Part shown: positions 10,194 through 18,687 of the stretch, piece by piece | Layout of the letters: each line of letters opens with the position of its first letter | How positions within the stretch are numbered: the stretch's first letter is position 1 | Origin: Spirochaetia bacterium | GTDB lineage: Bacteria > Spirochaetota > Spirochaetia > UBA9216 | DNA length: 64,000 nt | Assembly (NCBI GenBank): GCA_963675665.1 | Contig: OY776510.1 | Location: forward strand, 1,408,001-1,472,000 | Reading direction: 5' to 3' | Position numbers and translations under genes: made by a program | Notes under the pieces: generated by a model | Database searches by the model: none | What the model was told of the DNA's origin: nothing | Seen by the model: only the letters and a program-made list of their open reading frames with translations

Positions 10194-11735
10194 GTGAGCA
10201 ATCCTGAAGTAAAGGCCGGTTTTCTAACCAGAATTCTGTCAATTCTGTCAAGAGCATCGGATCCTGAAAGGGAAAAAAAGCGTCAGCTTAAAGATGTATA
10301 CAAACAGCTAAAGAATCATAAATACAAGTTTTACAAGCCAAAAACCGATGAAGCGCTCGCTGCTCTCGCCAAATTATTTTATGATATATATATAATTGCA
10401 GGTCCCGCAAAAATACTTCTCGATCATGCTGAAGCTTCTGTTGTTTTAAAAACAATTATCATTGAAAATTCATTTTCCGAAAATCAGAAAAATATCAGAG
10501 CGTCATTCGATGATACCGAAATCAGGGAAGCGGTTAAGGCCTCCGGAGGCAACGTAAAAAATGTTACCGAAGAGCTTAAATCAAATCTTGTAAATTTTTT
10601 CTCTATATTTGACACTGAAAAAGTTCGTGAAATAAACGCAACCTATAATCTGATGACAATCTTTCTGGAATTTATATCTTTCGATTATTACTTCTTTCTG
10701 AGGAAGTTTGATTCCAGGTTTCCGGAAAATGATTTTACCTATAATTCCAAATTTGAAGATATAAACGGTGAATATATTGTTGAAGATCTGAAAGATTTTC
10801 TTGTACTGATACCTTTTCTTGAACTTGATGCTTCCTGGGACTCCCTGTTCGACGTCCTCTCTTCCTATAAAGGCGCCGAACTGATGAACCGCAAGGACTG
10901 GCAGAAAATCCTTCGAAGAATCCGGGATGTTCGTCAATCCAAAATTCTTGAGCTCATGATCAAGGCAATTGATCAGGATCCTGCATACGCATACAGGGTG
11001 CAGAGGCCCAACAAGCATATTGTAGAAGATTATCTGAACAAGTTGAAAAGCCAGGTTGAACTCTCAATACAGAAGATCCTCAAGGAGCAGAGAACCAACA
11101 AAATTGACAGTCTTGCCGACAGAATTTTCGGAACGCATGCAATCTCAAGAATGAAATATTATACCGAAAAAGCCAACCTGGCTTTCGCCAAAAAAATGCT
11201 CGGAGGATATATATATATCGCGCCGATGAATTATCTGAAGGCGTTTCTGGTTGATTTCTGCAAAAAGGATATAAGAGAAATCAGCGATGTTCTTCTTATC
11301 AGGGGCAAGTGGACTACAAATATCAGTTCACAGCAGCTTTCCGAAGCCTTCTACGGACTGATGTCGACAGCAGAAGAGTTAATTACTTTTGATGAAAAAC
11401 TGTCTGAAGAAGGTGTGCGGGGCAGCGAGATAACAAAACTTCTGAAACGCCGTGACTCCGATAAAGCAAATATAACGCTGCTTCGAAAGCAATTAAAAGA
11501 GATTAATGATGATGCGCTCAGATTGATTAATACTACCGGGGTCCATCTTGTATCTATTGCAAAGAGTTTCAAGCTTGTTATTGAAGATTATCAGAAAAAA
11601 CCTCATGAATTGCTTACAAACTGGAAAGAGATAGAATCAATAATTGAAGGCGGAGTAGTGCCAAGGATGTCCGACATTTACAGGAAATGCTATTATTTTA
11701 TCCAGCTGCTTCAGTTTTACAACAAGAGCAAATAG
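10194..11735 (+). CDS. Conserved spirochete hypothetical protein (DUF5312-like)
   Basis: DPEREKKRQLK, FDYYFFLRKFD motifs; TTGACA(10146)-17-TAACAT promoter; family recalled, not searched. Confidence 0.65.
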   Translation: MSNPEVKAGFLTRILSILSRASDPEREKKRQLKDVYKQLKNHKYKFYKPKTDEALAALAKLFYDIYIIAGPAKILLDHAEASVVLKTIIIENSFSENQKNIRASFDDTEIREAVKASGGNVKNVTEELKSNLVNFFSIFDTEKVREINATYNLMTIFLEFISFDYYFFLRKFDSRFPENDFTYNSKFEDINGEYIVEDLKDFLVLIPFLELDASWDSLFDVLSSYKGAELMNRKDWQKILRRIRDVRQSKILELMIKAIDQDPAYAYRVQRPNKHIVEDYLNKLKSQVELSIQKILKEQRTNKIDSLADRIFGTHAISRMKYYTEKANLAFAKKMLGGYIYIAPMNYLKAFLVDFCKKDIREISDVLLIRGKWTTNISSQQLSEAFYGLMSTAEELITFDEKLSEEGVRGSEITKLLKRRDSDKANITLLRKQLKEINDDALRLINTTGVHLVSIAKSFKLVIEDYQKKPHELLTNWKEIESIIEGGVVPRMSDIYRKCYYFIQLLQFYNKSK

Positions 11736-11736
11736 C

Positions 11737-13743
11737 TTATTCAGTAAAATCGCCGAGGCTTGTATCGCCGACCGGTTTTTTAAATCCGGAAAAAACGACC
11801 GCAATTATCACGCAGTTAACTACCGAAGCGGCTGCGAAAATATTCCACTCCGGAGCTCCGGATGCAATGCTTCCGACGAATGAATAAAGTTTCAGGCTGA
11901 TAGTGTAGAGTTTTTCATCGTTCAGAAATAAAAGCGGCGCCATAAAACTGTTCCAGGCACTTATAACCGCCGTCATTACCGCGGTAGTTATAACCGGCCT
12001 GGACAGCGGCAGAATTATCCTGAAAAGGTATGCACCGGCCGGTTGTCCCTCAAGCAGGGCGATGTCGCGAAATGCCCGGGGCATTCGGCCCAGCCAGGCT
12101 GTTATTGTAAACATCGAAAAAGGAATACTGTGATATATCGAAATTATTATCAGTGGAACGTATGAATTGACCAGTCCGATTCGCTCAAATGAAGAATAAA
12201 GCGGTATCAATGAATGCATGCCGCCTGTTATGCTTAAAATCTGAATAAAGGTAAGCGCGGCTATTGTGGTTCCCCTGCCCCGACTGTTGAGCCATACTGC
12301 CGCCGGAAAGCATACGATTGGAACCAGTAAGCCTGTCAGTCCGGAAAGGATAATTGTGTTTCTGAAGTACAGCATAATGTTTTCTTCCAGAAACACAGTT
12401 TTAAAGCTGTTTAACCCGGCATGTGGAGGCAACAGACCGTCGATGTAGCAGGCGCTTACACCGGAAAAGCTCATCCAGATCAGAAAATAAAGAAGGGCGG
12501 CAGAGCTGATAATAAGAAAGAGAGATGAAAAGGTTGAAAAGCCGAGATTGAGGCTGCCGAGCAACGGAGAATTTATGCTCCGGGCAGTTCCAAAAGAGCT
12601 GTTTCTGCCTTTTTTCCGACAGCAGTACATGAGCGTAAAGACTGCAGGGAAAATCCCCGGATTGAAACCGGCGAGGAAACTGGTTTTAGCAATACAGAAA
12701 ACAATCCAGAGGCCGTGAATTATAACCGCCGCTCGGAAAAAGCGCTTGTTTATGAATCCTGTAAGATACAGTGCGGCCGGAACCAATCCTGCCTTCCGGG
12801 AGAATATTATCTGCAGAGCAGCTGTAATTATAATCAGGAATTTGAATTTTCTGTCGGCGCTGAAATTCCTGTTTTTGGTTACGTACCAGATCAGCATAAG
12901 CAGTATAACGATGCCTGCCATAATAACGGAGTAGGCGGACGATATCCCGTAATCGTCGGTGTTGTTGAAAACATCGAAGAGGAATGTATCCATTGTTGTT
13001 GTGGCTCCGATAACATATCTTTCGGTTATGCCTGAAAGAAGTGGCGGACCGCCTGATGTCATAAGAAAAATAAGGGTGAATTCCTTGAACCCTTTGATAA
13101 AGTTCAGCACTGCCATGACAATCAGCGAAGTTTTAATTTGGGGCAGATATATATGGTAGGCAATAATTCCCGTACCCGCTCCGTCAAGAACGGCCGCTTC
13201 AATACAGCTTTTTGATATTTTTTTAAGCGCGCCGTGAAGCACAAAAGCGGTAAGAGGAACTGTCATCCAGATGTTGACAACCATACAGCTGAAGAATCCG
13301 GCAATCGGGTCTGTCATCAGGTTGGCTTCTATTCCGAAGAGGGTTGTCAGAACGGAGATTCCACCGTTTCCGTGGATTATTGCCCGCCACAGCGGAACAG
13401 CTATATAAACCGGTATCCCCCACGGAACAAGAAGCGCTGCGTAAATAATATTTGAAAATCTTTTTCTGCCCGATAATGCAAGGGCAATTATAAAACCGAA
13501 AAAGATGCTCAGAAATGTGCTTAGTACCGCCCATAAGGAGGTTATATTAAGGCTGTAACCGAACCCGGCATCGGCTCCGAGATAACGGAAATTATCCAGC
13601 CCGGCAAATGTCCGAATGCCGTATGTGTCGTGAAAAAAGGAAGTTGTAAGCGCTTCAAAAAAAGGAGAAATTCCCGCCGCTGTTATGACCAGCAGGGCGG
13701 GAATGATAAAGTATATTTTTACATTGAATTTATATTTACTCAA
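11737..13743 (-). CDS. Fused double carbohydrate-type (MalF+MalG-like) ABC permease
   Basis: Two permease modules (GLDNF, EAAVLDGA, MTSGGP; DIALLEG, LPLSRP, SAWNSF) joined by a hydrophobic linker; overlaps the upstream stop. Confidence 0.9.
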   Translation of the reverse strand: MSKYKFNVKIYFIIPALLVITAAGISPFFEALTTSFFHDTYGIRTFAGLDNFRYLGADAGFGYSLNITSLWAVLSTFLSIFFGFIIALALSGRKRFSNIIYAALLVPWGIPVYIAVPLWRAIIHGNGGISVLTTLFGIEANLMTDPIAGFFSCMVVNIWMTVPLTAFVLHGALKKISKSCIEAAVLDGAGTGIIAYHIYLPQIKTSLIVMAVLNFIKGFKEFTLIFLMTSGGPPLLSGITERYVIGATTTMDTFLFDVFNNTDDYGISSAYSVIMAGIVILLMLIWYVTKNRNFSADRKFKFLIIITAALQIIFSRKAGLVPAALYLTGFINKRFFRAAVIIHGLWIVFCIAKTSFLAGFNPGIFPAVFTLMYCCRKKGRNSSFGTARSINSPLLGSLNLGFSTFSSLFLIISSAALLYFLIWMSFSGVSACYIDGLLPPHAGLNSFKTVFLEENIMLYFRNTIILSGLTGLLVPIVCFPAAVWLNSRGRGTTIAALTFIQILSITGGMHSLIPLYSSFERIGLVNSYVPLIIISIYHSIPFSMFTITAWLGRMPRAFRDIALLEGQPAGAYLFRIILPLSRPVITTAVMTAVISAWNSFMAPLLFLNDEKLYTISLKLYSFVGSIASGAPEWNIFAAASVVNCVIIAVVFSGFKKPVGDTSLGDFTE

Positions 13744-15166
13744 GAATTATCTTGACAACATTTCTGACGGCTTTTATTCCGTCCGGAATAAGCGCAGCAT
13801 CATTATCCCAGGCTACAACAAGCGGGAATTCATCTTCATCAAGATCTGATCCGTCGCCCTTGAACATCCCGATGATGACATCATTATTGCCGTCGAGCTC
13901 GGATGCGGCAAGAGCGATTGTATAACCGTCCGAAGCTTCAATTTTTACAGTTTCATATCCGCTGTATCTTTCCAGAAGCATATAAATCGGCATGCCCATG
14001 TAATCTTTAAGTTTTGTTTTCTTTTTATTCCACATTTCGACTACTGTGCGTGAGTTTGTAACCCCGGACATCAGTGTCTGGGCGTCCATTACCTCTGTGC
14101 CGGAGGTGCTTACAAGCGAGAGATTAAAATTCTTAAATGGAATATCCTTAATGATAATCTTTTTAACCATCCGGGCCGATACGTGTCCGGTGAAATTGGG
14201 ATTCTCCGGTCCTACTTTTACAAGTCGTATATATCCCGGATCTTCAGGCATATATTCGCCGTTTTCCCTGAATGCCAGGATCCAGTCGCCGTTTGAGTTA
14301 TCCAGAAGCTGTTCGCCGCTGTAGTTCATTGCATAGCCGTCCATGGCTTCGATGGTTATGCTCATGTCGGCCGAAAGATTTGTATATTCGTTTATCAGGT
14401 CGACTATCTTTACGCCGGCCCAGGTAGACTCAAATGTATTACCGTAGCTGTTTGTATAATTACCCTTGTCTTCAATATAATAATTCAGTTTTTCCAGCTC
14501 GCTGATTTTATATGATCCGGACTGTTCTCCAATCTCCAGTATCAGTTCAAAATCGTTGTTTTCAAGCGATACAGCTTCTATCGAAGCGGTAATTTCTGAA
14601 AGTTCTTTTACCCACAGCTGTCCGGAGACATTTCCGCAGGACATGGGTTTGATCTTCTCGCCGTTAACAGAGTCTGCTATGTAAATTTCATCGGCGGCGT
14701 GGTCAGCAGTGTTTATTGTAGCTGAATATCCGTCTGCTGCGGTCAGCGTAAGATCATAACCTGAATTCCAGAGGTCTTCCTTGAAAGAATAAGGCATTGT
14801 CGCATCGGCATCATCCACCATTGCTACAATTTTTACCAGAGGCATTGCCGTAACAGTCAGCATTTCGCCTTTTCTTTCGAACTGAAATTCTCCGTAACCG
14901 GAGGCCGGATCTTCTTTCCACTTTTCAAAGTTGGATTCCCATACTTCATCAGCTCTTGCGCCGCTGACATTTATAAGCCAGCCTTCGCCCTTGGGTGTTG
15001 CGTGTGAAGTATCGTCAATTTCCGAAATCTCGGCAGTTTTTGCCTCCTCCGATGAGACCGTTTTTGATGTAGTTGAGTTTTGGTCGGTTGCTGTTGCACA
15101 GCCGCTGCTGAGCAGAACAGCCGTAACAAGCAGAAGCATCAGTACTGATAAAATTTTTTTCTTCAT
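13736..15166 (-). CDS. Lipoprotein with three tandem sulfite-oxidase-fold (Oxidored_molyb-like) molybdopterin-binding repeats
   Basis: LSSGC lipobox; repeats TAMPL..AADGY..WVKEL, WAGVKI..AMDGY..ILAFRENGE..GYIRLV..ARMV, YMGMPI..ASDGY..FPLVV..AVRNV. Confidence 0.75.
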   Translation of the reverse strand: MKKKILSVLMLLLVTAVLLSSGCATATDQNSTTSKTVSSEEAKTAEISEIDDTSHATPKGEGWLINVSGARADEVWESNFEKWKEDPASGYGEFQFERKGEMLTVTAMPLVKIVAMVDDADATMPYSFKEDLWNSGYDLTLTAADGYSATINTADHAADEIYIADSVNGEKIKPMSCGNVSGQLWVKELSEITASIEAVSLENNDFELILEIGEQSGSYKISELEKLNYYIEDKGNYTNSYGNTFESTWAGVKIVDLINEYTNLSADMSITIEAMDGYAMNYSGEQLLDNSNGDWILAFRENGEYMPEDPGYIRLVKVGPENPNFTGHVSARMVKKIIIKDIPFKNFNLSLVSTSGTEVMDAQTLMSGVTNSRTVVEMWNKKKTKLKDYMGMPIYMLLERYSGYETVKIEASDGYTIALAASELDGNNDVIIGMFKGDGSDLDEDEFPLVVAWDNDAALIPDGIKAVRNVVKIILE

Positions 15167-15196: not shown

Positions 15197-16687
15197 TCAG
15201 AAGTCCCGTTCTTCCATGTTTTTATCTACCAGGGTTTGAGTCTGTTTTAATACCTGGTCCGCCGGCAGTTTTCCGGAAATTGCAAATCTCAACATTTTCC
15301 ACATGATGTTTTTATAAACTGAATAAGCTTTGTCGGTCGGAATAATGACCCCGTCGGACGCGCTTATGCTGAGTGTTTCATAAAACGGATTTGTCTCTTC
15401 TGCAGTCAGCCATGCTTTCTCAAGGGCCGGCAATTTGGCTGTTTCGGATGTAAAACGCTGTTGAACCCCAATTCCCGTCAGGTATTCGATTAACCGGCGC
15501 GCTCCTGTTGTATTGTGTGAACGTTTTGAGATCGCAAAAGCTTTGAAATCAAGCAGCGGAGAAACCCTGATGCCTGTTTTATCGTTTACAGGAAGAGGCG
15601 CTGTTTCAAAAGGTATGCCCAGCTGTGTAAAATGGGGAATGCTGTATGATGCACTGATAATCATTGCCGTCTCTCCGGAAACAAAAAGAGAAGTCATTGC
15701 ATCTCTTTCCATCGGCTGCATAAGCTTGTTGTCCTGAAGCTCAAGGATGTATTCGAGCGCATCAAGCGTCGGTTTGTCGTCGATCAGTATCGAACCGTCG
15801 GATTCGACAAGAGTCTTTTTGCCGAATGCGAATTGAAACGGAATAAGAAATGACGCCGAGTATGAATTCCAGGCGGAAGGTATTTTTCCGTTTTGCTTAA
15901 CATTTTCACATGATCGTTCAAAATCGGAAAGCCGCCAGTTATTGTCAGGACGCGGGACAAGCTCGGGATTGTAGAAGATCATCTGTGCGTCATAATAGAA
16001 AGGAATTCCCCACAGTTTTTTATCAAGAGAGAATGCATCTATTCCCTGTTTAAATAATCCTTCTGTCGCCATGAAATCAAGATTCTGGATGCTTCCCGAG
16101 CGTGCCAATCTGTCGATGTAGCTTGACTGAACCATTATCACATCAGGAACACTGCCGTTAGCCTGTGTTGTCGATATAAGCTTTGAATCAGGTTTTGATA
16201 CTTCTACAATTTTAATATCGATAGAATGCAGATCCCCATAGCGCCCGATCTCGTCTCTGAGCAGTGAAATGCCCTCCCAGTTTACCCATATTTCAAGAGG
16301 ACTATATTCAAGTGTTTCGCAGTCAAGGTTGACGGATTTTATATTTGTATAAAGCCTGTTTTTGTAAAGAACAGACCAGCTGCCGTCTGTAGAAACCAGA
16401 TAGTGTTTTGACAGATTGTCGCCAAGGTCAGGATCGACAAGTTTTATGCGGCTGTCCGGGTTGTCCGAACCGAGAGAAAGGGTCCATGCTTCGTATACTG
16501 CCGGAAAAAGTTCGTCAAGGGAAATTCCGGTCATAACAGTTCCGAGAAAGGGGATAGGATATGATAACGACTGCAACTCGGTATTGCTGAATTCTTTCCA
16601 AATGGAATTGTTTACCGAGAACGATACTGCGTAGATATTAAGTGTAATAAATACAGCCGTGACAACAAGAACGGCCCTTTTAATCAC
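15197..16687 (-). CDS. Maltose/MalE-like ABC solute-binding protein with an extra ~130-aa N-terminal domain
   Basis: Signal peptide after GTG 16687 (AAAGGAAG SD); VPDVIM, LWGIPF, FYNPELV, LFVSGETAMII; the ORF-track 5' extension lies inside the riboswitch. Confidence 0.85.
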   Translation of the reverse strand: MIKRAVLVVTAVFITLNIYAVSFSVNNSIWKEFSNTELQSLSYPIPFLGTVMTGISLDELFPAVYEAWTLSLGSDNPDSRIKLVDPDLGDNLSKHYLVSTDGSWSVLYKNRLYTNIKSVNLDCETLEYSPLEIWVNWEGISLLRDEIGRYGDLHSIDIKIVEVSKPDSKLISTTQANGSVPDVIMVQSSYIDRLARSGSIQNLDFMATEGLFKQGIDAFSLDKKLWGIPFYYDAQMIFYNPELVPRPDNNWRLSDFERSCENVKQNGKIPSAWNSYSASFLIPFQFAFGKKTLVESDGSILIDDKPTLDALEYILELQDNKLMQPMERDAMTSLFVSGETAMIISASYSIPHFTQLGIPFETAPLPVNDKTGIRVSPLLDFKAFAISKRSHNTTGARRLIEYLTGIGVQQRFTSETAKLPALEKAWLTAEETNPFYETLSISASDGVIIPTDKAYSVYKNIMWKMLRFAISGKLPADQVLKQTQTLVDKNMEERDF

Positions 16688-16689
16688 CT

Positions 16690-16815
16690 GCACTTCCTTT
16701 CCAAACACGGGAGGCCCTGCTGTTTCCGGCAGAACCCTTCGATCTCCGTCCATCGAATAGCTGATATTTTTAAAAATAAAGCGAATTCTACAGGAATGAA
16801 GATTCGGAAGATATA
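16690..16815 (-). ncRNA. Moco RNA motif riboswitch, P3-less (tungsten-cofactor-type) variant
   Basis: Minus strand reads CTTCC-GA-ATCTTC..CCTGTA..GATGG..GGAGAT-CGAAGGGTTCTGCCG-GAAA-CAGCAGGGCC-TCCCGTGTTTGGA-AAGGAAG, i.e. P1, P2 with receptor-like motif, P4 with GAAA loop and P5; matches the GCCTCCCGT...GGAAAGG signature. Confidence 0.85.
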
Positions 16816-16827
16816 ATTATCGAATAA

Positions 16828-16856
16828 AGTTTAGCCTCTCACTATTAAAAGGTCAA
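16828..16856 (-). promoter_or_regulatory. Sigma70 promoter of the riboswitch operon
   Basis: TTGACC(16856-16851)-17 bp-TAAACT(16833-16828), just 5' of riboswitch P1. Confidence 0.7.
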
Positions 16857-16920: not shown

Positions 16921-18555
16921 TTATTTATATTTGTATCTCTTGATTTTTGATGTAGGGGTTTTTTCAAACTCTTCTGTTCTGATTTCAGTGCTGATTATTT
17001 TTGAGTAGGCCGGGAGCTCCCGGTTAACGGTTTTAACCGCCTTTGCTATTTCTTCTTCAATGCCCTCATTTGTAAGTGCAAAGCTCTTTATATAATCAGG
17101 ATCGGGATAAATCAATGCTGTTACATCACCGTCGCGGTCTATTACAAGGGCGTCCGCAACTATATCATGGTTGTTAAGCCTTGCTTCAAGTTCTTCAGGG
17201 TAAATATTCTGCCCCGACGGACCCAGCAGCATATTTTTGCACCTGCCCTTTATAGTGACAACCTGGTCCTGATCCATTACCACCATATCGCCTGTATGAA
17301 GCCATCCGTCCTTATCAATAGCTTCTTTTGTTGCTTCTTCGTTTTTATAATACCCGATCATTACATTTTCTCCGCGTACGCAGAGTTCTCCCTGGCCTGT
17401 GTCAGGATCCTCGTTGTCAACACGGGCTTCGAGATGATAAATGATTTTTCCGGCAGAACCGCTTTTGTAAACATCCCACGGCATATAGCTTATAAGCGGT
17501 CCGCATTCGGTCATTCCGTAACCAACTGTGAATCTGAATCCTATTTTTGTCAGAAATGCTTCTACCTCGGGATTGAATGCGGCAGCTCCGATTACTATTT
17601 CAATGAACCTGCCGCCGAAAGTTTTATTCAGCTTGCCGGAAATGATCCGTTCAAGAAGCTGCTTTATTACCGGAAGTCTGGCATAACTTTTATCAAGAAT
17701 CGGTTTAAGCTGTTTAAAATAAATTTTCTCAATAAGCAGCGGAATGGACAGAATCAGGTTGGGCTGAACGTCCGCAAGGGCTTTTATTATCAGCTGCGGT
17801 GAAATCCTGGGCAGAAACGTAATGTGACAGCCTGTAGCAAAAGGAAAAAGAAAATCAAAAGTACATCCAAAGCTGTGGGCCAGCGGCAGAAAATTCAATA
17901 TCGAATTTCCCGGTTTAAGCTCAATGCTCTTCTGTGCATAGTCTACATTGGCCATAAGGCAGTTATGATTCAGCATAACACCCTTGGAGAACCCGGTAGT
18001 TCCGGATGTATACAGGATTCCGGCCAGCTCTTCATTGTGAATTTCTTCAAATTCAAGATCTTCCTTATTGAATCCGCTTTTATACTTTTCATCGATTATT
18101 GTCCGCGATTCGGTTATTACCGAATCATTTATTGCGTTTTTTGTCATGAATATATGAAAATCGTCAAGGTTTCCCCCTACTTCGAGGTTTGCCAGGTTGT
18201 GAATATCAATATCTTTCCAGATAGCCTCATCTGCAAAGAATATCCTGGATTCCGAATGATTAATAATATTTGTTATATCTCCGCCGGAGAAATCAGGCAG
18301 AATAGGGACTATAACTGCACCGTAGGTCACAGTGGCCAGATAGCATTTTGCCCAGTTAACCGAGTTTTTTCCGCATACTGCGAGTTTGTCCCCTTTTTTT
18401 ATCCCGCATTTTTTGAATACTTCATGAAAAACAAGCATGCTTTTCGCAATATCGCCGAATGTGTGACTGTCGGCATCATAATTAGTGAAACACGGCTGAT
18501 CCCAGTTGTCTTTGAAACTGTTTTCCAGTGTTTTAACAAAATTTCTTTCCAGCAT
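16921..18555 (-). CDS. fadD: Long-chain fatty acid-CoA ligase
   Basis: YTSGTTGFSKG, GYGMTE, GWLHTGD, GQNIYPEE, KTPTSKIKR. Confidence 0.9.
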   Translation of the reverse strand: MLERNFVKTLENSFKDNWDQPCFTNYDADSHTFGDIAKSMLVFHEVFKKCGIKKGDKLAVCGKNSVNWAKCYLATVTYGAVIVPILPDFSGGDITNIINHSESRIFFADEAIWKDIDIHNLANLEVGGNLDDFHIFMTKNAINDSVITESRTIIDEKYKSGFNKEDLEFEEIHNEELAGILYTSGTTGFSKGVMLNHNCLMANVDYAQKSIELKPGNSILNFLPLAHSFGCTFDFLFPFATGCHITFLPRISPQLIIKALADVQPNLILSIPLLIEKIYFKQLKPILDKSYARLPVIKQLLERIISGKLNKTFGGRFIEIVIGAAAFNPEVEAFLTKIGFRFTVGYGMTECGPLISYMPWDVYKSGSAGKIIYHLEARVDNEDPDTGQGELCVRGENVMIGYYKNEEATKEAIDKDGWLHTGDMVVMDQDQVVTIKGRCKNMLLGPSGQNIYPEELEARLNNHDIVADALVIDRDGDVTALIYPDPDYIKSFALTNEGIEEEIAKAVKTVNRELPAYSKIISTEIRTEEFEKTPTSKIKRYKYK

Positions 18556-18687
18556 TATTTTCTGCCCCCTGAGTTTTACCGCTTTGCAGCGGTGCATTCA
18601 TTCATTATTATCCATATATTGTCAAAAAACAAGCATTTTCGGGTGAGGGCTGATATTGTCAGGTTGTCGGTTAGAAGTGAGCTTTTT

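Follow-up and report, generated by a model that had tools for sequence, protein, structure and literature searches.

A three-domain lipoprotein of sulfite oxidase-like fold in a riboswitch-controlled transporter operon of spirochaetes: a candidate route for salvage of tungsten or molybdenum pyranopterin cofactor

What does a protein built on the fold of a molybdenum enzyme do when it lacks the cysteine that holds the metal, carries a lipid anchor and is encoded between two genes for an importer? The question is raised by an open reading frame (ORF) of 476 amino acids on the minus strand (13736..15166) of the window, by which we mean the whole 64,000-nucleotide stretch of DNA analysed here, taken from the genome of a Spirochaetia bacterium (assembly GCA_963675665.1, contig OY776510.1). 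An earlier sequence-only reading had described the product as a lipoprotein; its coordinates were confirmed, and the ORF, the signal peptide and the lipobox (LSSGC23) were all found. Very probably, the lipoprotein is a non-catalytic component, of the type represented by sulfite oxidase (SUOX) and by the pterin-binding protein PruR, of an ATP-binding cassette (ABC) importer repressed by a riboswitch. As to the cargo, we put at about 60% the probability that this importer, a module of three genes, salvages a tungsten or molybdenum pyranopterin cofactor or a close precursor of it, the lipoprotein being its non-catalytic module for capture or hand-off.

A search of 5.8 billion proteins yielded 164 relatives of the lipoprotein at E ≤0.001. 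The named ones are almost wholly from Spirochaetota and are labelled "molybdopterin-dependent oxidoreductase" or "hypothetical protein". An alignment of 41 homologues was the basis for all conservation figures and for an AlphaFold model. When this alignment was cut into three slices (R1, residues 58-197; R2, 198-349; R3, 350-476) and their profiles were compared with hhalign, R1 matched R3 with 98.5% probability (E 2e-15), R2 matched R3 with 94.3% (E 1e-7) and R1 matched R2 with 76.8% (E 2e-5). The order of strands and helices is identical across the three repeats in the model (mean predicted local distance difference test score, pLDDT, 85.6; predicted template-modelling score 0.66), in which the folded part of about 420 residues follows a disordered stretch at residues 24-57. 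The three repeats proposed from the sequence are thus borne out by profile comparison and by the model alike. Prediction from the single sequence was uninformative (pLDDT 32.8), and the alignment-based model was used instead.

The fold is that of the molybdenum-cofactor domain of SUOX enzymes. Over the whole lipoprotein, the family profile PF00174 matches residues 241-347 with 38 bits (gathering score 24), a match that covers only positions 63-168 of the 169 in the profile. Scanned alone, R2 of the window protein scored 31.2 bits, and R1 and R3 gave no PF00174 match. When the repeats of 31 family members were scanned separately at E ≤1, PF00174 was the commonest family for each of the three, being found in 31/31 for R2 (best 3.1e-9), 7/31 for R3 (best 7.5e-5) and 6/31 for R1 (best 0.0082). 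This per-repeat scan, proposed as a check by the sequence-only reading, was therefore positive for R2 and weakly positive for R3 and R1. Structural comparison extended the assignment. In a Foldseek search of the PDB, the top ranks went to sulfite dehydrogenases and oxidases (E 1.6e-7 and up), with PruR structures next (template-modelling score by target 0.64-0.71). With VIA-align, R2 superposed on PruR structures 7kom (Z 15.6; model residues 206-340) and 7kp2 (Z 15.5; 199-342), and R3 on 7kou_A (Z 15.0, root-mean-square deviation (rmsd) 2.5, 125 residues aligned; 346-476) and 7kos_D (Z 15.1; 326-476). The corresponding scores with SUOX enzymes were Z 10-15 over about 142 residues. The SUOX fold, which structure prediction and Foldseek comparison with MsrP and PruR had been suggested to probe, accordingly stands, R2 and R3 both superposing on PruR at Z of about 15. 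R1 alone drew only beta-grasp matches (Z about 5), so that its assignment to the SUOX fold rests on its homology to R3. At the sequence level, neither the whole protein nor any repeat profile had a significant match among the sequences of solved structures, the best being PruR (E 0.67-1.1) and a plant sulfite oxidase (E 1.6); comparison of each repeat profile with Escherichia coli MsrP alone was likewise not significant (hhalign, 0.2-2.9% probability) and was used only to locate the W-x-G motif. The lipoprotein is, then, an array of three homologous SUOX/PruR-type domains on a lipid anchor.

The cysteine that ligates molybdenum in the enzymes is missing. None of the 41 invariant columns of the family alignment is a cysteine; the window protein has only two, C23 of the lipobox, which is conserved in at least 90% of the homologues, and C177, which is not conserved. 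The single cysteine of E. coli MsrP, C146, lies 10 residues ahead of a W-I-G-F-P-L motif, and a W/Y-x-G-x-P/K-L/I motif is common to MsrP and the repeats. By this motif, which alone sets the register, the place of Cys146 in R2 corresponds to the tip of a long hairpin, T238-N-S240-Y-G-N, just before W249-A-G-V; at least 90% of the family retain T238 and S240. The absence of the Mo-ligating cysteine, a central claim of the earlier reading, is upheld. The hairpin of R2 is followed by D276-G-Y278 and by an invariant block, D309-P-G...R314...K317...G319...P323...H328-x-S330...M333 (consensus D-P-G-Y-I-R-x-V-K-V-G-P-x-x-P-N-x-x-G-H-x-S-x-R-M). This block aligns weakly with H-G-F-P-L-R-V-V-V-P-G...S-V-K-W of plant sulfite oxidase, Met333 falling at the enzyme's Trp. 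The N-termini of the family are Lys/Arg-rich lipoprotein signals for the general secretory (Sec) pathway; an arginine pair occurs in one of the 21 displayed and in none of the other 20. The signal for twin-arginine translocation (Tat) by which the periplasmic enzymes of the sulfite oxidase family are exported is thus not what the lipoprotein carries. A Sec lipoprotein signal in place of a Tat signal, together with the lack of a conserved cysteine, argues against a molybdenum-cofactor enzyme loaded in the cytoplasm.

A cysteine-less protein of this fold is known to bind pterins. PruR, a periplasmic protein, has been shown experimentally to do so; in it, a Trp replaces the Mo-ligating cysteine within a shortened hairpin bearing a Pro-Trp motif, and the pterin is stacked between Y104 and W160 and hydrogen-bonded via N102 (PMC11194511). 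In the lipoprotein family, each of the three repeats has an invariant or almost invariant D-G-Y motif, with D-G-F in many copies of R3. N102 and Y104 of PruR (N-D-Y) pair with this motif (D276 and Y278 in R2) in HMMER alignments that are themselves not significant (E 0.67 and 1.1). Asn-to-Asp and Tyr-to-Phe variants have been noted among PruR homologues in a 2026 review (PMC13259868).

The gene for the lipoprotein is the second of three on the minus strand, in the order MalE-like binding protein, lipoprotein, fused MalFG-like permease, and the start of the permease gene overlaps the lipoprotein stop by 8 nt (Table 1). Related loci, 80 in all, were drawn from a collection with one genome per species, and 69 of them have the three genes co-directional and in the same order. 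In ten of the others the contig ends next to where the missing gene would lie, and in the remaining one (L066) the permease gene lies upstream on the other strand. Thermotoga maritima MalE1 is the best solved relative of the binding protein, and the permease matches MalF (3.9e-18), UgpA (2.9e-14) and GlcU (5.3e-14) among NCBIfam models. Of the parts of a transporter of the carbohydrate uptake type CUT1, a family-1 binding protein and two BPD_transp_1 domains are present. No ATPase gene is found in the operon, nor consistently nearby in the 12 diverse loci whose neighbourhoods were compared; a shared ATPase elsewhere in the genome was not looked for, and we take the ATPase to be encoded elsewhere. 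Taken at its longest, the binding-protein ORF would begin at 16753, which falls within the riboswitch aptamer described below. Judging from the sequence, the true start is probably the GTG at 16687, which lies 5 nt after a Shine-Dalgarno (SD) sequence and gives the protein an N-terminal signal or membrane anchor. In many genomes, automatically annotated versions of this gene may be too long at the 5' end (16688-16753, minus strand, in the window). A conserved region of about 100 residues with no Pfam match (16303-16618, minus strand; approximately residues 46-150 of the long ORF) separates the membrane anchor from the MalE-like fold. It might dock the lipoprotein. The idea that it is a fourth SUOX-like domain was not supported (hhalign below 1%; nothing in Pfam).

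Table 1. Positions in the window of the features of the three-gene module and its leader
Feature	Position	Strand	Evidence or remark
Promoter-like TTGACC-17-TAAACT	16828..16856	-	7 nt upstream of riboswitch; consensus match only
Riboswitch aptamer for molybdenum/tungsten cofactor (RF01055), P3-less	16678..16821	-	60.8 bits (gathering score 36), E 3.8e-12
MalE-like solute-binding protein	15197..16687	-	PF13416 2.1e-22; PF01547 9.9e-19; NCBIfam MalE 6.2e-20; 6dtu 7.6e-23
Lipoprotein: signal peptide and lipobox (residues 1-23, LSSGC)	15098..15166	-	Sequence; family alignment
Lipoprotein: low-complexity disordered tether (residues 24-57)	14996..15097	-	pLDDT <50; variable and gapped in family alignment
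Lipoprotein: repeat 1, most divergent SUOX-derived domain, motif D145-G-Y147 (residues 58-197)	14576..14995	-	hhalign; model; PF00174 6/31
Lipoprotein: repeat 2, most SUOX-like domain (residues 198-346)	14129..14575	-	PF00174; PruR 7kom/7kp2
Lipoprotein: repeat 3, PruR-like domain, motif D413-G-Y/F (residues 347-476)	13739..14128	-	PruR 7kou_A/7kos_D; PF00174 7/31
Fused two-domain ABC permease, MalF-like and MalG-like halves (668 residues)	11737..13743	-	PF00528 in two stretches; NCBIfam

A clue to the function of the module comes from its leader. The sole Rfam match in the window, lying directly 5' of the binding-protein gene, is the aptamer of the riboswitch for molybdenum cofactor (Moco) or tungsten cofactor (Tuco). 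The match covers the full model (1-135) with positions 62-78, corresponding to P3, deleted, and the 3' strand of P1 bears the Shine-Dalgarno sequence GGAAAGGAAG. Of 9 diverse loci searched with Rfam, 8 have the same element ahead of the gene for the binding protein. All eight copies that were aligned lack P3, have the SD sequence embedded in P1 and are followed by a start codon within about 10 nt of it. A covariance model built from these eight copies detected the riboswitch in 63 of the 80 loci; 12 of the 17 others lack upstream DNA and five are true negatives, which leaves 63 positives among 68 testable loci. P3-less copies were reported to go with tungsten-cofactor metabolism and were proposed to be Tuco sensors (Regulski et al. 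2008; PMC2408646). As to the promoter-like site upstream of the aptamer, 12 such sites were found in the region where 10.3 are expected from shuffled sequences, and its position is the only argument in its favour.

The distribution of the lipoprotein gene was compared with that of a tungstopterin enzyme, aldehyde:ferredoxin oxidoreductase (AFOR; query AFOR_N), and of markers for cofactor biosynthesis. Six queries were run on an evenly drawn sample of 151 Spirochaetia genomes, including that of the window, and the resulting lists were tallied by script. At E ≤1e-20 the lipoprotein is present in 34 genomes, in 24 of 88 genera; AFOR_N is found in 72 genomes, MoaC in 61, the MoaA C-terminal domain in 59, MoeA_N in 61 and MoaE (PF02391) in 24. 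MoaE was dropped as a marker because it is missing even in genomes with MoaA, MoaC and MoeA. The gene goes with AFOR, which occurs in 32 of 34 carriers as against 40 of 117 non-carriers. Half of the carriers (17/34) have no match to MoaA, MoaC or MoeA_N; AFOR is present in every one of these 17, and 11 are at least 90% complete (for example G134, 97% complete with five AFOR matches, and G015, 96% with nine). Put the other way, the lipoprotein is carried by 17 of 28 AFOR-positive genomes without markers versus 15 of 44 with a marker, and by 2 of the 79 genomes without AFOR. In five marker-less carriers RF01055 was found on the strand of the lipoprotein gene, about 1.4-1.6 kb upstream of it, in the place expected for the binding-protein gene. 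It is the only RF01055 match in three of the five; among these three, that of G044 falls below the gathering score, at 28.8 bits. A MoCF_biosynth domain is found in neither G134 nor G015 and once in each of the other three, in ORFs of 424-460 amino acids, which are not MoeA because MoeA_N is absent from those genomes.

A cofactor-sensing riboswitch in a genome without the pathway can only answer to imported cofactor, and the obvious candidate importer is the module under its control. The following sequence of events can be envisaged. When cofactor is plentiful inside the cell, the P3-less riboswitch would hide the ribosome-binding site of the first gene. Outside the cell, the lipoprotein, exported unfolded by Sec, would use clefts that correspond to the site for Moco or pterin in SUOX and PruR to capture, and perhaps shelter, a W/Mo pyranopterin cofactor or one of its close precursors; it would then hand the ligand to the binding protein for import through the permease, and the imported cofactor would serve AFOR-type enzymes. 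We infer ligand binding, the identity of the ligand, its hand-off and the direction of transport; what the analysis shows is the fold, the lost cysteine, the order of the genes, the riboswitch and the pattern of co-occurrence. Metal-loaded cofactor, molybdopterin, cyclic pyranopterin monophosphate and a simpler pterin are all options for the cargo, the metal-loaded form being favoured by the absence of MoeA from the 17 marker-less carriers. A more tentative proposal is that many free-living anaerobic spirochaetes that have lost the whole pathway, yet retain up to nine AFOR genes, live on W/Mo cofactor released by their neighbours by means of the lipoprotein and a sugar-type ABC transporter, and that the tandem domains may serve to accommodate both pterins of the bis-pyranopterin form. 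In its main lines the salvage reading agrees with the multivalent, non-catalytic extracytoplasmic capture protein for a cofactor or pterin, feeding a transporter, that the sequence-only reading had put forward, and which the PruR match, the Sec signal, the loss of cysteine, the riboswitch and the AFOR pattern all support.

Alternatively, the module might import tungstate or molybdate, either free or complexed with an organic chelator or polyol, the lipoprotein helping to bind the oxyanion or its complex. Moco/Tuco riboswitches classically control transporters of these anions (PMC2408646), and the permease has a ModB match, weaker than those quoted above (7.2e-13). We nonetheless regard this explanation as unlikely. 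The binding protein has no match to PF13531 or PF12849 at E ≤1, only PF13416 and PF01547 scoring above the cut-off, and its best relatives are MalE proteins; the Moco-binding fold is not a known oxyanion binder; and tungstate alone would be useless to the 17 carriers that have no MoaA, MoaC or MoeA. The rest of the riboswitch regulon bears on both sides. The genome of the window has 11 RF01055 matches, and downstream of the other 10 lie a tupABC-like operon, a mod/wtp-like operon, a ferredoxin gene with AFOR, an aldehyde dehydrogenase gene, an adenylosuccinate-lyase-like gene with IMP dehydrogenase, and five units with Peripla_BP_2 binding proteins, three of which have FecCD permeases and ATPases. 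With tupABC-like and mod/wtp-like operons under the riboswitch, canonical oxyanion uptake is already covered. Some of the other riboswitch-controlled importers, to which no substrate is assigned, are of the FecCD (chelate-type) class, which speaks for this explanation.

Several of these riboswitch-controlled units merit description in their own right. The five with Peripla_BP_2 proteins (G000:C1 2928862, 2532611, 561818, 3877638 and 2513481; loci L097, L099, L101, L104 and L105) include one with an extra SBP_bac_11-like protein, two with radical-SAM genes and one encoding a double binding protein of 666 residues. Such Peripla_BP_2/FecCD units, which are importers of the chelate or vitamin type, may be further routes for uptake of cofactor or metal chelates. 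Elsewhere (G000:C1 2461539, L103; 3452594, L098) the riboswitch precedes a nicotinamide adenine dinucleotide (NAD)-type aldehyde dehydrogenase gene and the adenylosuccinate-lyase-like gene with IMP dehydrogenase. The former arrangement recurs in L058 (10337-12087), and the enzyme may be a tungsten-independent stand-in for AFOR, repressed when cofactor is available. The latter pair lies on the route to guanosine triphosphate, the precursor of the cofactor. In the DNA neighbouring three related loci, further riboswitches are found ahead of ferredoxin and AFOR genes, of AFOR with ThiS and ThiF, and of aldehyde dehydrogenase. Finally, the genome of the window has 16 AFOR_N matches, and so many tungstopterin-type oxidoreductases are unusual in a single bacterium.

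The structural match raises the possibility that the lipoprotein is, like PruR, its closest structural relative, a sensor of free periplasmic pterins that regulates the transporter or signals through it and delivers no cargo. PruR works by binding the periplasmic domain of a partner (PMC11194511), and the binding protein has an extra N-terminal region to which no role is assigned. However, no DcpA-type partner, GGDEF or EAL domain or other signalling gene was seen in the module, a tandem of three domains is foreign to PruR, and neither a Moco/Tuco riboswitch nor the pattern of AFOR and biosynthesis loss would be expected for a pterin signal of the biofilm type. On balance a sensor is improbable.

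Least plausible are two further explanations. One takes the resemblance of binding protein and permease to MalE, MalF and MalG at face value and makes the module an ordinary oligosaccharide importer, with the lipoprotein as a carbohydrate-binding accessory that reuses a beta-grasp-like core (the domains also match beta-grasp folds, Z 4-5); it leaves the cofactor riboswitch of 63/68 testable loci without rationale, and the gene tracks AFOR and not saccharolytic genes. Genes beyond the three-gene module are not conserved in the 12 diverse loci, where no consistent partner and no consistently linked glycoside hydrolase or sugar-metabolism gene was found. In the window, the flanking genes for a DUF5312 protein (10194-11735, plus strand) and an acyl-CoA synthetase-like protein (16921-18597, minus strand) are syntenic only in the closest relatives (L001-L004 and L073) and do not belong to the conserved unit. 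The other explanation, a catalytic extracytoplasmic molybdo- or tungsto-enzyme that binds its metal through a non-cysteine ligand such as the nearly invariant Ser240, with the transporter handling substrate or product, could draw on the long hairpin, the SUOX-like motifs and the many invariant residues of R2 and on the fact that Moco riboswitches also precede genes for Moco-using enzymes (PMC2408646), but it is most improbable given that the family has no conserved cysteine, that N-termini without twin arginines (20 of 21 displayed) make cofactor-loaded export impossible, that the module has no redox partner (haem, Fe-S or MsrQ-like) and that the 17 carriers without biosynthesis markers could not fill such an enzyme.

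Several observations weigh against cofactor salvage as we propose it. The binding protein and permease resemble sugar (CUT1) transporters and are unlike any known cofactor importer. Met333 of R2 would, by the plant sulfite oxidase alignment, be the equivalent of PruR's second stacking residue, W160, and the pockets would therefore differ from that of PruR. The connection between absence of P3 and sensing of the tungsten cofactor is a bioinformatic association from 2008 rather than a measured specificity. In four loci from Sphaerochaetaceae (L013, L014, L020 and L052) and in L018 the module has upstream DNA with no detectable riboswitch, so that regulation there must differ. The genome of the window itself has MoaA, MoaC and two MoeA genes, and salvage is therefore not obligatory in it. 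Conversely, 11 AFOR-positive genomes without biosynthesis markers are also without the lipoprotein. Most of the sampled genomes are metagenome bins; because moaA, moaC and moeA frequently lie side by side on the same contig in these spirochaetes, failure to assemble just one contig can make all three look lost. Lastly, related genomes are not independent, and the contingency counts accordingly overstate the support.

The repeat is not confined to the three-domain form. A profile search of 1.84 billion cluster representatives returned 679 proteins at E ≤0.001, 305 at ≤1e-10 and 126 at ≤1e-30, among them forms with two repeats and proteins that reach 3139 residues and eight matched stretches. 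Among the giant relatives, of 1000-3139 residues with 4-8 stretches, are P0131, P0137, P0155, P0176 and P0191; P0096 and P0100 are two-repeat proteins of about 320 residues. One two-repeat (R1+R2) relative, of 327 residues, was checked directly, and the ESM Atlas has similar clusters of about 311 residues in Chloroflexota and Bacillota. Going by these profile matches, the SUOX-like repeat is a widely reused extracytoplasmic module.

Moco and Tuco are generally held to be too labile to serve as nutrients, and synthesis de novo to be required. Most organisms are said to be unable to take up Moco (PMC9026282) and uptake is documented for nematodes only (PMC7849362, PMC9793310); the 2026 review (PMC13259868) describes the way in which pterins cross membranes as unknown. 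In the literature outside subscription journals we found no description of a bacterial importer of Moco or Tuco, or of SUOX-fold proteins in transporter operons. One paper considered as a possible prior report of such an importer (PMC13119186) concerns a cobalt transporter of the energy-coupling factor type only. What the present case adds is the CUT1-type ABC version in Spirochaetota together with the pattern of biosynthesis loss. The module suggests that these spirochaetes take up from outside a cofactor usually regarded as produced only by the cell that uses it. A bacterial salvage route, if real, would explain how genomes keep tungstoenzymes without biosynthesis genes, would add cross-feeding of cofactor to the ecology of anaerobic communities and would give the P3-less class of riboswitches a clear physiological role. 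It would also provide a natural cofactor-binding carrier protein, possibly useful for stabilising Moco, and would carry over into transport a principle that PruR exemplifies in signalling, the reuse of a Moco fold for binding pterins.

Of known proteins, PruR from Agrobacterium, Vibrio and Klebsiella (PDB 7kos, 7kou, 7kom, 7kp2 and 7rkb) is closest. Like the lipoprotein it is exported and non-catalytic and has a SUOX fold without the cysteine. Among solved structures it matches R2 and R3 best (Z 15.0-15.6, rmsd 2.5-3.0, 125-133 of 134-147 residues aligned), and its N/D-x-Y pterin-contact motif aligns with D-G-Y of the lipoprotein. PruR differs in being a single domain paired with a c-di-GMP (cyclic diguanylate) enzyme of the DcpA type, whereas the lipoprotein has three domains, a lipid anchor and a place in a riboswitch-controlled ABC operon. 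The two-gene operon with a DcpA-type sensor was not encountered, the neighbours in 69/80 loci being binding protein and permease. Where PruR has a shortened hairpin with Pro-Trp at the place of the cysteine (PMC11194511), R2 keeps the long hairpin with Thr-x-Ser, and the two proteins have no significant sequence similarity (E 0.67-1.1). With the sulfite oxidase family proper (SUOX, SorA, SoxC, MsrP/YedY and assimilatory nitrate reductase; PF00174) the lipoprotein shares the fold of the Moco domain; it differs in having no Mo-ligating cysteine and no dimerisation or haem domain, and in its Sec lipoprotein signal in place of Tat. Importers of the MalEFGK2/CUT1 type have a binding protein (PF01547/PF13416) and two permease domains of the same kind. 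The module is distinguished from them by the fusion of the permease halves, the lack of an ATPase in the operon, the N-terminal extra region of the binding protein, the additional lipoprotein gene and the control by a cofactor riboswitch. In this last respect it resembles riboswitch-controlled salvage importers of vitamins and cofactors, such as BtuFCD with the cobalamin riboswitch and the thiamine importers with the thiamine pyrophosphate riboswitch, where an RNA sensor of the completed cofactor likewise represses the importer. To that arrangement the module adds a multi-domain capture lipoprotein derived from the fold of the cofactor's own enzymes.

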